From NCBI GenBank assembly GCA_963817955.1, contig CAWFQK010000004.1, positions 1,216,001 through 1,280,000 on the forward strand: DNA of 64,000 bases, in the 5' to 3' direction. The notes beneath the pieces were generated by a model, which ran no database searches, was not told where the DNA came from, and was given only the letters and a program-made list of their open reading frames with translations. The DNA comes from an uncultured Gemmatimonadaceae bacterium (GTDB taxonomy: Bacteria > Gemmatimonadota > Gemmatimonadetes > Gemmatimonadales > Gemmatimonadaceae). Position numbers and translations under genes: made by a program. Shown here one piece after another: positions 46,882-56,949 of the stretch (positions are counted from its first letter, which is position 1; every line of letters starts with the position of its first letter).

Positions 46882-46963
46882 GCGCGCGAAAAAAATAGGC
46901 ACAAAGTGGCGATCGGCGGGGTTGGGGGCAGTATCGCCGGCGGTGCAGCCGATCGCGAGGCGG

Positions 46964-47112
46964 GGATTGGGCTCCGGACTCTATTCTGGCTGGGTGTCGC
47001 TGGCGGCTCCGTAGCGGTCGGCCCACCGGTCGGCGAGTTTCGAGTTTCCAGTTGTGAGTTGTGCGTCGTGAGTTTCTCGTGTCCCGTGTCTCGTGTCCCG
47101 TGTCCCGTCTCG
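46964..47112. repeat. Second, inverted copy of the dispersed element at 86-228, ending in a heptamer run
   Basis: GGATTGG.CTCCGG...GCTGG.TGTCGCTGGC.GCTCCGTAGCGGTCGGCCCACCGGTCGGCGAGTTTCGAGT.TCCAG matches the reverse complement of 86-228. Confidence 0.9.
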
Positions 47113-47913: not shown

Positions 47914-48909
47914 ATGTACTCCACCTGTATCCACTGCCACGCGCCGCTTGGCACGAATGAGCTGGTCGCGCCGTGCCCGGTCGGCAGGCGGCTCGCGTTC
48001 GATGCACGGCATGGCCGCCTGTGGATCGTCTGTGCGCGCTGCCGCGAGTGGAATCTCACGCCCCTCGAGGAGCGGTGGGAAGCGATAGAGGACTGCGAAC
48101 GTCTGTTCCGTTCCACTCGCTTGCGCGCATCGACTGAGAACATCGGGCTCGCCAAGTTGCCGGAGGGGCTGGAGCTCGTGCGCATCGGTACGCCGCTCCG
48201 CCCGGAGATCGCCGCGTGGCGCTACGGCGCCGAGTTCCGGCGTCGCCGGCTCGTGGCGAGGTTGCCGGCCGCTGCACCGCTAGTGCCGATGGTCGCGCTC
48301 AACGTGCTGGGTGTCGCGCAGATAATCCCGATCTCGTTTGCCGCCGTGGGGGCCACCCTGGGGTTCGGGTCTATAGTGTACATAGTGCGCAGTCGCTGGC
48401 GGCCGCGCGTTGTGTGCGAGGATGGCCGCGTCACGCGGCTTCGGGTGCGCGAGTACAAGGAGACACGCCTGGAGCGGCGCGGCGATTCATGGGGGCTGCG
48501 CTGGCAGCCAGACGGGACTTCACCTGGATTGGAGGGCAAGCCGGCAGAGCGCGCCCTTCGCTCGATTCTCGCCGGCGCGAATTCACACGGCGGGTACGAT
48601 GCGGATATTCGCGGTGCGCTCGGTCTCCTCGACCAGATTGGCGGCGGCGACCGTTTTCTCACGCGGTTGGCGCGCGTCTGGCCGGCCGACGTTCACTGTG
48701 GCATCTGGTCCTTGCCGCCCGACGTACGCCTCGCGCTCGAAATGGCCGTGCACGAGGAGACGGAGCGGCGCGCGCTCGAGGGTGAGCTCGCCACGCTCGA
48801 GGACGAGTGGCGTCTCGCCGAGGAAGTCGCGTCAATCGCGGACAACCTCTTCCTCCCCGATGACGTCGCGGCCTCGCTTCGCGCCGCGCCGGGCGAGGCG
48901 AGTACATGA
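47914..48909 (+). CDS. Hypothetical Zn-ribbon membrane protein
   Basis: MYSTCIHC...GRRLAFD...VCARCREWNL.P.EERWE; two TMs; acidic C-terminal helix. Confidence 0.8.
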   Translation: MYSTCIHCHAPLGTNELVAPCPVGRRLAFDARHGRLWIVCARCREWNLTPLEERWEAIEDCERLFRSTRLRASTENIGLAKLPEGLELVRIGTPLRPEIAAWRYGAEFRRRRLVARLPAAAPLVPMVALNVLGVAQIIPISFAAVGATLGFGSIVYIVRSRWRPRVVCEDGRVTRLRVREYKETRLERRGDSWGLRWQPDGTSPGLEGKPAERALRSILAGANSHGGYDADIRGALGLLDQIGGGDRFLTRLARVWPADVHCGIWSLPPDVRLALEMAVHEETERRALEGELATLEDEWRLAEEVASIADNLFLPDDVAASLRAAPGEAST

Positions 48910-49259: not shown

Positions 49260-49325
49260 TCGCGCAGGGCCGCCCAACGTGAGCGGCCCTGCGCGCGTGT
49301 GGATGGATGTACTACCAGGAACGAA

Positions 49326-50036
49326 CTACCCCGCTGCGACCGGCGGCTGGGTTGCTGGTGTGGCTGGTGTGCCTGGTGTACCAGCCGCCACCCTGGTACG
49401 ACCCAACTTGGCGGTCGGCTTGATCTCCACCTTCCACTTCCCGAGCAGCTCGGGATCGTTCTGGAGCGCGATCTGCACCAGACAATCCAGCGCGCGAAGC
49501 GTCTTGCGTGCACTGATGACCTGCACGGCGATCTGCTCCGTCGCGCTCTGGCGCGCGCCACGACTCCGGGCACGATCGTCGATGGCGGCCACCATCGCGT
49601 TTGCCGTGTCGCGCAGCCGGCTGACGAAATCGACCGGCAGCCCCGCGGCAACGAACGTGGCGCTGTGCCGGTCCGCGTGACTTGCCATACCCATCGCGGC
49701 GCCGTGCAGCACCTGCGTACTCACCTTCGACGACGGCATGCTCAGGTCTGCCAGGTCGGGCCCCTTGGGCAGATCGGCCGCCGCGACGCGAGCGATCGGC
49801 GCCATGTGCTGCGTGACCAACACCGTGCGGAGCGTCGACTTCTTCCGGGTGAAGCCCTCTGAATCACGACTGCTGCCGAACTGCGTGGCAGCGAACCGAT
49901 TCAGGTCGGCGAGCTGCGACGACAGTTTCCGCCGTGTGCCCGATGTCGCGACGTCAGGCATTGTGGCTGCGTAGTCACCAACGAAGTTGTCAGCGGCCCG
50001 CAGCGTTTCCACGATACGTCCCTGCCGATTCTGCAT
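49326..50036 (-). CDS. Uncharacterised predicted all-alpha protein (236 aa) adjacent to the 21-bp array
   Basis: GGAGG RBS before MQNRQGRIVETL; amphipathic helices, HMAPIARVA, AGLPVDFV, LD..V...L.NDPELL..W, Pro/Ala/Thr tail. Confidence 0.85.
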   Translation of the reverse strand: MQNRQGRIVETLRAADNFVGDYAATMPDVATSGTRRKLSSQLADLNRFAATQFGSSRDSEGFTRKKSTLRTVLVTQHMAPIARVAAADLPKGPDLADLSMPSSKVSTQVLHGAAMGMASHADRHSATFVAAGLPVDFVSRLRDTANAMVAAIDDRARSRGARQSATEQIAVQVISARKTLRALDCLVQIALQNDPELLGKWKVEIKPTAKLGRTRVAAGTPGTPATPATQPPVAAG

Positions 50037-50058
50037 ACGACGACCTCCATATATAGGA

Positions 50059-50098
50059 TGAGGACGCGAATGATTCAGTCCCGGCATGCGCGTCCTCA
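50059..50098. promoter_or_regulatory. 10-bp perfect inverted repeat (hairpin or operator) between the gene start and the array
   Basis: TGAGGACGCG (50059-50068), 20-nt spacer, CGCGTCCTCA (50089-50098). Confidence 0.6.
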
Positions 50099-50130
50099 CG
50101 CCGGGGGCGCCTTCTCGGAAGTGAGAAGGG

Positions 50131-50736
50131 CGAAATTGCTCGATCTAGGGCCGAAGTCGACTGATCGAGTGCACAGTCGACTGAGCGTTTGTCGAAGTCG
50201 GCTCACGGATTGCCGACGTCGAATGGGCGATTTCCGACGTCGCGTGACCGATCGCCCAAATCGAGTGGCCAATCGCCGAAGTCGGTCGCACGAAAGGCGC
50301 TGTGCCATGGTCAAACGCCGAGGTCGAATGATTGCTTACCGAAATCCAGTGATCGATTTCCGCGGTCGGCTGAACGTTTTCTAAATCGAATGTCCGTTCG
50401 CCACAGTGAAGCAGGCCATTGCCGCAGTCGGCTACACAAAAGCCGAAGCCACATGATCGATGGCCGAAATGACGTGACCGATCAGCGAGATGAAGTGGAC
50501 GATCGTCGAAATGACGTGACGGATCAGCGAAATGAAGTGGACGATCGCCGAAAGGAGCTGACCGGCCGGCGAGATGGGTGACCGATCACCGAAATGACAT
50601 GACCGATCGGCGATATGGAGTGGCGGATCGCCGAAATGACGGGGACGGTCGGCGAAATGAGGTGGACAGTCGTCGAAGTGGGCTAACCGAACACCCCGGT
50701 CAAGTGGACGACCAGACCAATGAAGTGGACGCGCTC
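50131..50736. repeat. Degenerate tandem array of about 29 units of 21 bp (three units of 20 bp)
   Basis: Units start at 50131, 50152, 50172, 50193, 50214 ... 50695, 50716. Approximate consensus CGAARTSRNVTGACCGATCGC; e.g. CGAAATGACGTGACCGATCAG and CGAAATGAAGTGGACGATCGC. Confidence 0.9.
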
Positions 50737-50892
50737 ACGTGTCCCGTGTCTGACATCTCATGCTTCGTGAGCCGTGCCCCCTACTATCTAGTCTCCGCCG
50801 GCGCACGCCAGCGCAAGAGTAAACTACCGTTTTCTCCAAAACTTCTATCTTGCCACCAAAAAGTTGTGTTTTCACAACTGGCGTGTTTGTTA

Positions 50893-51090
50893 TGGCAGAC
50901 AGCTGCCATTTGCGCCGAGTGCAGCGCGGGCGCACTCGCGCGTTTGCGGGTCGATACGACCGGAGGCGCGTCCGACTGCTGTGCATTTTGTGGAATGCAT
51001 CGCCGTACGGCCCCGATTGGTGCCGGAGGTACGATCGGCATCTGCGAACCATGCAGCCAGCTGGCCCTGGAGATATTGGGGCCGAGTTGA
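50893..51090 (+). pseudogene. Fragment with ClpX C4-type zinc-finger-like motifs
   Basis: AICAECS...CAFCG...GICEPCSQLALEIL; no convincing start. Confidence 0.5.
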
Positions 51091-51925: not shown

Positions 51926-52175
51926 GCCTGGTGATTCGCCGGCTCGCCGCCGGGCGCGCTCCTCCATCTCGAGTTGGACCACGGTCGTAACCTGTAGGTC
52001 AACGGTTTCCTGGCTTCAATGCTCAGTTTCTTGTTCATGAGGACAGGGTTCGAACCGATTGTGTCGGCGATGTTGCCGCCGCTTCGCGCGACAAGAATCT
52101 CTACTGCGTCAGGCACGTCAGCGAGCGCCGCCGCAGGGCTGGCGCGGCGTATATGTCTGCAATATACTTCGACGC

Positions 52176-52493
52176 ATGGCCGGACTTGAGGATCTGCTGA
52201 CGAGCCTCACCGGTTTCGACTGGGATGATGGCAATTCCACGAAAAACTGGGAGCGCCACCAAGTCACCCAGGCCGAGACGGAAGAGGCCTTCTTCAACCG
52301 GCCGGTACTCGTCGCGTCGGCAAAGCCCAGAGATCGTGAAAGCCGGTACAACGTTCTGGGCCGAACCAACGGTGACCGCCTACTGTCAGTGGTCTTCACC
52401 GTACGCCGCGGGTTGGCTCGGCCCATCTCGGCCCGTCCGATGAGTCGCAAGGAGCGCAGTGCATATGCCGAAATCTCGCCCGAAGTCCCCTAA
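52176..52493 (+). CDS. brnT: BrnT family toxin
   Basis: GFDWDDGNSTKNWERHQV...E.EEAFFN, E.RY..LGRT, LSVVFTVR, RPISARPMSRKER. Confidence 0.9.
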   Translation: MAGLEDLLTSLTGFDWDDGNSTKNWERHQVTQAETEEAFFNRPVLVASAKPRDRESRYNVLGRTNGDRLLSVVFTVRRGLARPISARPMSRKERSAYAEISPEVP

Positions 52494-52782
52494 GGCCATC
52501 CCGTCGTTTCCGTCAGAGGATGCGGAGCGCGAGTTCTGGGCCACGGCCGACTCAACCGATTACTTCGATTGGTCGAAGGCCCGTCGCGCCGTGTTCCCGA
52601 ATCTCAAGCCATCCACGGCGACGATCTCGCTTCGACTGCCGCAGGGCATGCTTAATGAGTTGAAGGTCCTGGCGAATCAGCGCGACGTGCCGTATCAGTC
52701 GCTTCTGAAGGTGTTTCTCTCCGAGCGCATTGCGGCCGAACGTCGGCGCCCCCGGCCGAAGCGCCGGCGCGCGAGTGCCTGA
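52465..52782 (+). CDS. brnA: BrnA/CopG-like antitoxin
   Basis: IPSFPSEDAEREFW..DSTDY, PNLKPST.TISLRLP, RDVPYQSLLK; overlaps the toxin stop. Confidence 0.88.
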   Translation: MPKSRPKSPKAIPSFPSEDAEREFWATADSTDYFDWSKARRAVFPNLKPSTATISLRLPQGMLNELKVLANQRDVPYQSLLKVFLSERIAAERRRPRPKRRRASA

Positions 52783-56549: not shown

Positions 56550-56754
56550 CGGGGAGTGTCAATATAGATGTCGCATGAGGCGTCAGGCGACGCATGCGGG
56601 TACGGCGACCTTGCCGTGCTTGTCCGTTGTCGTCGCGCTGAATATTGCGGCAGTCGTGCTCGTACGACTACGTGCTAACGCTGAAATGCTCAAAAGATGT
56701 GGGTTTTGGCGAATTGGACATATTGGCCCTTGCGCTGACCCCCCGTTTTCGGAA

Positions 56755-56949
56755 CTAAGCGCGCTTCGCGCGGTGCGCCATCGTTGCGGTAAATCCTTGT
56801 ACTCCACTGTCATCGGGCACCTGGCGCAAGAATACCAGATAGTCGGATTCACTGCTCAGGCCGCGCGGCATGGGCAAACGTTCGCCGGAGCGAATTCCGA
56901 TCCGGGCATACTCTCGTTCGATTTCGGCCTTCTGCTGTTCCGTCAACAT
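56755..56949 (-). CDS. Small hypothetical protein (64 aa)
   Basis: AGGAG RBS before MLTEQQKAEIEREY; protein-like composition. Confidence 0.6.
   Translation of the reverse strand: MLTEQQKAEIEREYARIGIRSGERLPMPRGLSSESDYLVFLRQVPDDSGVQGFTATMAHRAKRA

Follow-up and report, generated by a model that had tools for sequence, protein, structure and literature searches.

What can a tandem array of 21-bp units, placed directly upstream of a gene for a helical protein of no recognised family, contribute to a bacterial genome? The question is raised by a locus in a stretch of 64,000 nt (the window, to which all positions given without a prefix refer) from an uncultured Gemmatimonadaceae bacterium (assembly GCA_963817955.1, contig CAWFQK010000004.1, positions 1,216,001-1,280,000 of the forward strand). 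The genome (G000; 4.53 Mb, 64% G+C) comprises 9 contigs, and the prefixes C1-C5 used below denote contigs of this genome. The gene, here called G, occupies positions 49326-50036 of the minus strand, and upstream and downstream are always meant relative to it. We show that the array is non-coding and that it belongs, together with G, to a polar module of conserved layout, and we tentatively propose that it acts as a transcribed partner of G.

A non-coding minisatellite of 21-bp units

The array is built of 29 phased units, 26 of 21 bp and three of 20 bp, in agreement with the initial annotation of this DNA, which had counted about 29. Over 50131-50740 the identity of the sequence with itself at lag 21 is 0.545, against a maximum of 0.332 in 300 first-order Markov simulations, where the best lag between 5 and 59 averaged 0.305 (standard deviation 0.009). 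In a slightly wider interval (50101-50760) the value is 0.531; the signal returns at lags 42, 63 and 84, other lags giving about 0.25, and Tandem Repeats Finder (TRF) reports periods of 21 and 42. Since identity at lag 7 is only 0.31, compared with 0.53 at lag 21, the units are true 21-mers and not 7-bp units; they are direct and not inverted repeats, and show no mirrored arrangement of 7-bp hairpins. Three 20-bp units had previously been placed at 50152, 50382 and 50570. Their number stands, while we find them to start at 50173, 50361 and 50570, the exact placement inside a unit being arbitrary. Long-read error does not account for the slip at 50570, because a 151-nt short-read unitig is identical and gapless to 50508-50654 and spans it; this unitig comes from run X2, maybe derived from the genome's own sample, and was one of 7 short unitigs obtained from four DNA runs of a single soil study.

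Likeness among the units of one array is only about 65-80%, the most uniform units forming a homogenised centre and the ends being degenerate. The polarity noticed earlier is real, with units of the CGAAGTCG type (GTCG-type) near G and of the CGAAATGA type (ATGA-type) distally, and so is the alternating 42-bp pattern: around 50465-50670 there is a higher-order repeat, and over 50465-50590 identity at lag 42 (0.71) exceeds that at lag 21 (0.62). In four diverged paralogous arrays, unit positions 1, 3, 6, 11, 12, 15 and 16 are conserved at 0.84 or above and positions 5, 7, 8, 9, 13 and 14 at 0.56 or below, part of this variation stemming from two unit subtypes. The resulting skeleton of the window's array family (C1, A3, T6, T11, G12, C15, G16) has its conserved positions spaced at roughly 5-bp intervals, and most units contain the palindrome CGATCG. 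A CRISPR (clustered regularly interspaced short palindromic repeats) array was considered and rejected, as it had been in the initial annotation, since all units are head-to-tail variants of one 21-mer and there is no class of spacers. No Cas family was found among nine neighbouring open reading frames (ORFs) scanned against Pfam, and Rfam gave no family, only sub-threshold hairpin matches, at this locus or at four other modules.

Since 21 bp correspond to seven codons, the array could alternatively be a protein-coding heptad repeat, either a coiled-coil-like gene or a recent pseudogene carrying three 1-bp lesions or sequencing errors. Between the slips, one plus-strand register indeed contains no in-frame stop; in a related module (A, see below) Leu-rich a/d heptads can be read on the strand opposite G, and for 14 of 18 arrays it is this opposite strand that has the best open frame. 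These 18 arrays, however, reduce to about six independent families, split 4 to 2, and open frames are weak evidence in such DNA, because a unit without a stop keeps a frame open along the whole array; one paralogous array even stays open straight across a register shift. In the window the plus-strand heptad peptides are split over three tiling ORFs (50058-50384, 50189-50581 and 50578-51090), just as the initial annotation had described, and the minus-strand register reading "AIGHVIS" is broken by the three slips and by 3-4 stops.

Further evidence comes from a codon-phase test with G as the positive control, which was run on other module families, the window's own array family aligning too ambiguously. 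Three modules of 2.1 kb align end to end (A, C4:1540902-1542975; B, C4:244188-246318; C, C2:999377-997247). Their G genes differ at the three codon positions in ratios of 4:3:17 (A/B) and 7:4:21 (A/C), with a ratio of non-synonymous to synonymous differences per site (pN/pS) of 0.16-0.17, whereas the differences in the adjacent arrays are spread over all phases (30:26:27 and 56:69:76) and pN/pS is 0.60-1.18, i.e. about 1, in all six frames. Wider paralog pairs gave the same picture, with intact G copies phase-biased (e.g. 7:30:6 and 3:19:4), decayed G fragments unbiased, and nearly all array pairs without bias; the two biased array pairs both involve module M10, have inconsistent phases and contain many 1-bp gaps. 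Gaps between paralogous arrays are mostly of 21 or 42 bp, accompanied by numerous 1-bp indels.

These data identify the array as a non-coding 21-bp minisatellite and not as the relic of a coiled-coil gene. They show that it turns over by the gain and loss of units (21 or 42 bp), by 1-bp indels and by phase-free point changes, and that G is under purifying selection. The initial annotation had favoured a non-coding array and had named, as the opposite case, one intact coiled-coil ORF damaged by sequencing errors or recent lesions; in the array families tested no frame shows purifying selection, and the 50570 slip recurs in a short-read unitig. Coding is the least likely of the explanations considered here, and we regard it as extremely improbable.

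A polar module with a conserved layout

Array and gene recur together in this genome. The periodicity score of a region was the highest value, in any 300-bp window, of lag-21 identity less the average of the identities at lags 18 and 24; in 2000 random genomic windows of 1200 bp its 95th percentile was 0.107. The genome contains 56 period-21 arrays of at least 300 bp, and a profile of the paralogs detects 23 G loci, about 11 of them full-length, 2 frameshifted and 10 fragments. When 1.2 kb upstream of G was searched, an array was found at 20 of the 23 loci (scores 0.21-0.54), and downstream at 1 of 23. An upstream array is missing at three loci: C2:11440, a divergent copy; C2:888485, a fragment contained in another ORF; and C5:177189, where the array lies downstream. 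Arrays of different module families share no sequence.

Some arrays stand without a gene. Three solo arrays of the window's family (L010, L011 and L012) lie between ordinary genes and have the same proximal-to-distal unit order as the window. Because these three further paralogous arrays keep the GTCG-proximal/ATGA-distal order, the polarity is ancestral and was inherited with the whole array; directional growth of the array, which had been suggested from the polarity, is therefore not supported, the most uniform units moreover being central. No second gene family recurs beside the 20 arrays that lack G. Two such arrays of 1.5 kb (G000:C4:765711-767253 and C4:1120346-1121893) have a conserved head but no detectable G, and are related to each other and to the module A array (68-73%). 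At another locus (L003, G000:C1:440895-442472) two tandem G-family genes stand behind a single array and are 24% identical to each other's family profile.

The association extends beyond this genome. In a sample of 41 genomes of relatives, the own genome included, G matches occur in 18, among them 13 of 24 genomes of the same genus, 4 of 8 of the sister family f2 and 0 of 8 of f3; in a phylum-wide sample of 151 genomes they occur in 33, including 5 of 31 in f1 and 27 of 71 in f2, with none in the 48 genomes of ten further families. Arrays at these loci were called at a score of at least 0.15, loci with too little flank being omitted. In the first set of other genomes an upstream array was present at 11 of 25 loci and a downstream array at 0 of 26; in a second, more distant set the counts were 20 of 35 (24 of 35 above 0.107) and 1 of 33, and the top lag was 21 or 42 at 31 of the 35 loci. 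Combined, 31 of 60 loci have an array upstream and 1 of 59 downstream, while the unit sequences differ from genome to genome. The layout of gene plus upstream array is thus conserved across genera and in a sister family despite complete turnover of the sequence. The link between a helical family and 21-bp periodic DNA that the initial annotation had mentioned is real, and it is specific to one side of G.

The homologs of G form 4543 clusters. Among the 150 best of these, which were checked for extensions, there are five in which the G match begins beyond residue 60 of the called protein, and four of the five extensions read as heptads, which indicates that gene callers ran into the upstream array. 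At the site of the window's module, one member of the genus (G184) carries an inverted G module that is only 33% identical, and another (G024) has no module after the shared neighbour genes, synteny being lost beyond them; no target-site duplication could be defined.

Taken together, the copies define a polar duplicative module that consists of an AT-rich head, the array, a structured spacer with a ribosome-binding site (RBS), G, and a closing GC hairpin (Table 1). As stated in the initial annotation, the array begins 95 bp upstream of the G start codon (at 50036), which is preceded at a distance of 7 nt by the RBS GGAGG (50048-50044, minus strand). The spacer contains a hairpin with CCCGGC/GCCGGG arms at 50080-50105 and a second one at 50110-50129, both without a T run. 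The loop of the first (GGACGCGC on G's strand) is complementary to the following GCGCGTCC (inverted repeat 50060-50068/50090-50098), and this hairpin is common to three other G loci, with 11 pairs, 2 of them compensatory, in a comparison of 4 sequences only. GC hairpins lie between array and G elsewhere, in several families 30-80 nt from the start codon, and in several families the room between array and G is too small for a separate promoter. A terminator-like hairpin followed through with a T run occurs in module A; this is a minority feature, since a custom scan of 64 loci found such sites at 6 on G's strand and at 2 on the other. A hairpin at the position equivalent to 49262-49294 closes modules A, B and C.

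The head of the window is a diverged version. It recurs, at 84-86% identity, in the distal flanks of two modules whose own units are unrelated to those of the window's array, and it is related to the head found at about 20 arrays. That of module A has 22 matches in its own genome (84-100% identical) and 0 in 40 relatives. Of 21 distinct head copies, 20 lie at the G-distal end of an array in constant orientation. The other is a solo remnant in the window (56672-56758, minus strand), 86% identical to the module A head, with no array or G alongside. When module families A and M3 are compared, identity is 88% in the head and only about 68% in the G region.

Table 1. Features of the module in the window
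Feature	Positions	Strand	Basis or remarks
GC-rich hairpin, 12-bp arms, 9-nt loop, 3' end of module	49262-49294		after G stop; shared with convergent upstream gene
Gene G, 236 aa	49326-50036	-	ORF; AlphaFold2 model; purifying selection in paralog pairs
Spacer, probably 5' untranslated region	50037-50130	-	holds GGAGG plus two hairpins
Non-coding 21-bp minisatellite, 29 units	50131-50739		TRF, lag identity, unit layout
Two GTGTCCC heptamer copies, distal array edge	50740-50752		sequence; heptamer also flanks modules A, B and C
AT-rich module head (core 50777-50829)	50775-50890		promoter-like on G's strand; similarity to other heads
Weak terminator-like hairpin inside head	50862-50879	-	precedes array along G's strand

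A module that multiplies in this way might carry the array as a selfish or neutral satellite, its periodicity arising from unequal crossing-over and slippage, which rides along and does nothing for G. Such an origin would fit the fast turnover through 21- or 42-bp indels, the homogenised centre with degenerate ends, the existence of solo arrays and pseudogenised modules, the lack of another recurrent neighbour at the arrays without G, and the distribution of the module A head, which suggests recent amplification. It does not explain why layout and side are kept across genera and in the sister family while the sequence turns over completely, why position-specific conservation is common to four diverged arrays, or why the strand skew described below is consistent; bacterial genomes, moreover, tend to discard useless DNA. 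We therefore consider a useless satellite unlikely.

Alternatively, the upstream arrays could be recombination substrates that favour gene conversion between intact and silent copies of G, or the shuffling of these copies, in analogy to the 70-bp repeats upstream of trypanosome variant surface glycoprotein genes. The family has many copies, about 11 of them full-length and 12 broken, the C-terminal Pro/Thr tails vary among G copies, and the divergent module of G184 occupies the same site in inverted orientation. Different module families, however, share no array sequence, so that pairing would be confined to members of one family; G is conserved and not diversifying (pN/pS 0.16), no expression site is evident, and no signal peptide is visible by eye on G, for which no predictor was run. 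On this evidence shuffling among G copies appears highly unlikely.

Gene G, a putative repetitive leader and neighbouring elements

AlphaFold2 models G (predicted local distance difference test score 86.2) as an elongated bundle made only of helices, two of which (33-88 and 137-190) are about 55 residues long, and with a disordered tail rich in Pro and Thr. The protein is basic (isoelectric point 10.5), as are all 10 of the 10 aligned family members (9.4-11.3). Searches of Pfam, NCBIfam, PHROG and PADLOC assigned it to no family, and PADLOC matched 0 of 10 G paralogs. There was no match to PDB sequences below E 0.5 and none to PDB structures in Foldseek at E ≤ 0.001, and a wide structural search gave best Z scores of 10.1 (McpS ligand-binding domain) and 9.7 (trypanosome receptor), in the generic range of helical bundles. 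These fold searches revealed no ribbon-helix-helix (RHH) or helix-turn-helix (HTH) fold, although they cannot exclude one. A tblastn search of plasmid (72,556 records) and phage collections found no match. In the Atlas, the clusters closest to G consist of hypothetical proteins that occur most often in Gemmatimonadota and Acidobacteriota, and they provide the sole pointer to phyla.

The explanation that we prefer, with somewhat less than even confidence, is that the array is a transcribed repetitive leader or platform acting together with G, a candidate nucleic-acid-binding protein. Transcription from the head would run along G's strand and yield a long repetitive leader rich in C, whose 21-nt units with their conserved skeleton would offer many phased sites to a protein that binds nucleic acids, G being the most plausible one. 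Such a leader, together with the hairpins preceding the RBS, could gate the output of G, or hold G in a ribonucleoprotein. This proposal draws support from the non-coding nature of the array, its side-specific association with G, the fixed polarity of the head, the hairpins before G, the unit skeleton in four paralogous arrays, the basic character of the whole family and the heptad-reading extensions of metagenomic homologs. It also agrees with a strand skew: on G's strand C exceeds G in 31 of 37 arrays (skew ≤ -0.1 in 17 and ≥ +0.1 in 1), compared with averages of +0.02 in G coding regions and -0.01 in the 800 bp downstream. Since the skew is tied to one strand and to the orientation of G, a transcribed element fits better than a symmetric duplex site.

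The latter possibility draws on the length of the unit, 21 bp making two helical turns. The array might be a lattice of phased double-stranded DNA sites for G or another protein, forming a centromere-like, iteron-like or silencing nucleoprotein beside the gene, in the way that parC repeats serve ParR. The strict phasing, the spacing of the skeleton, the palindrome in most units and the basic protein encoded next to the putative sites would be in keeping with this. Besides the skew, which would not be expected of symmetric duplex sites, it is opposed by the lack of a 10.5-bp A/T phasing common to the array families, by the fact that no HTH- or RHH-like fold was found for G, and by the absence of homologs from the plasmid and phage collections searched. 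We judge such a lattice to be rather improbable. DNA curvature shared by the arrays was considered separately and rejected, as the harmonic spectra differ between array families.

Several observations also weigh against a transcribed leader. No consensus sigma-70 promoter was called in the scan of the head, the window is not among the 6 of 64 loci with a terminator-like hairpin and T run, and predicted folding of the array RNA is unremarkable (z -2.35 on G's strand and -1.39 on the other, 20 shuffles). With their modest likeness the units differ from the near-identical repeats of type III toxin-antitoxin (TA) antitoxins, and the fold searches gave no recognisable RNA- or DNA-binding fold for G. 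Finally, solo arrays and arrays beside decayed G copies stay periodic, from which it follows that an array needs no G gene in cis.

A more far-reaching version of the leader proposal, possible but rather doubtful, is that the module represents a new class of repeat-RNA/protein system, in which an RNA of 0.3-1.5 kb composed of 21-nt units would bind many copies of G and either neutralise the protein, in the manner of a type III antitoxin though with an unrelated protein and a much larger, rapidly evolving array, or scaffold a ribonucleoprotein body. Judging from sequence comparisons, such a system would be widespread in soil bacteria of the Gemmatimonadota, and possibly the Acidobacteriota, and would spread inside genomes as a compact module.

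Other elements lie close to the module in the window. A small ORF with a TTG start and paired CxxC motifs (50887-51090, plus strand) resembles the C4 zinc finger of ClpX weakly and below threshold (E 0.018). It is not conserved beside other modules, and it was rejected as a module part because the modules cease to be similar before they reach it. On the other side of G, positions 47914-48909 (plus strand) encode a protein of 331 aa that has a CxxC...CxxC motif at its N-terminus and falls into no Pfam family; it has 6 matches in its own genome and matches in 31 of 31 genomes of the genus, and other period-21 arrays are found within 1 kb of two of its paralogs (C2:996493-996924 and C1:148420-149457). 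A BrnT toxin/CopG-type antitoxin pair at 52152-52782 (plus strand; Pfam E 1.9e-21 and 1.8e-32) is an ordinary type II TA locus. A dispersed repeat of about 170 bp at 46940-47111 has well over 150 blastn matches, on all contigs (73-97% identical); it ends in runs of the heptamer GGGACAC/GTGTCCC and looks like a miniature mobile element or a REP-like (repetitive extragenic palindromic) element. Throughout the genome, 7 is the commonest tandem-repeat period (279 TRF rows), GTGTCCC heptamers flank the modules, and 20-bp units such as GCCTGTCATCCTGAGCGAAG recur.

Comparison with known systems

Full-text literature searches, in the portions of text that they made available, brought up no account of 21-bp arrays that go with a protein family in such bacteria, and our findings point to an undescribed repeat-plus-protein module. 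An unannotated protein family of thousands has a fixed non-coding partner, whose period is kept while its sequence is fully turned over, and bacteria rarely keep kilobase-scale tandem DNA without use. The array may prove to be a partner resembling an RNA antitoxin, a leader that attenuates, a lattice on DNA or part of a new sort of self-copying module, and any of these outcomes would add a system that is absent from current catalogues. Gene callers, furthermore, extend G or call false heptad-repeat proteins through such arrays, which makes the annotation of soil phyla correctable.

Minisatellites of the mycobacterial interspersed repetitive unit/variable number of tandem repeats (MIRU/VNTR) type, with MIRU units of roughly 50-80 bp, are similarly intergenic, non-coding tandem repeats that are oriented with the transcription unit, vary in copy number and occupy tens of loci. 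The arrays described here differ from them in their unit of 21 bp, their length of 0.3-1.5 kb, their ties to one protein family and to one side of its gene, and their conserved head.

The parC/ParR and Rep/iteron systems are composed of phased direct repeats of about two helical turns beside the gene of the binding protein. The module resembles such partition centromeres and iterons in having phased direct repeats next to the gene of a putative binding protein. No partner nucleoside triphosphatase, however, is seen beside G, and no ParA or Rep family was found among the neighbouring ORFs scanned; the arrays are ten times longer, degenerate and present in many chromosomal copies, with 0 matches in the 72,556 plasmid records.

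Type III TA loci (ToxIN, CptIN and TenpIN) contain a promoter, tandem repeats, a palindromic hairpin and a protein gene, and they are defined by the repeats and a palindromic terminator followed by the protein gene; in some of the loci described there, the protein gene is truncated and the full set of repeats is retained (PMC3401426). The order of parts is matched in the module, with a promoter-like head, repeats 95 bp upstream of G in the window and upstream at 20 of the 23 loci of this genome, and, in the window's spacer, two hairpins that lack a T run. The differences are nonetheless considerable. G is a basic helical bundle without a PADLOC match and not an endoribonuclease of the ToxN, CptN or TenpN type; the module has 25-70 degenerate units of 21 nt, whereas ToxI consists of 5.5 repeats of 36 nt; only 6 of 64 module loci have a true terminator; and the modules lie on the chromosome, a single genome having 23 G loci. 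Because the protein is of a different family and the repeats are far more numerous and degenerate, we do not file the module as type III. By analogy, it may work like a type III TA system, but it is not a member of the type III family.

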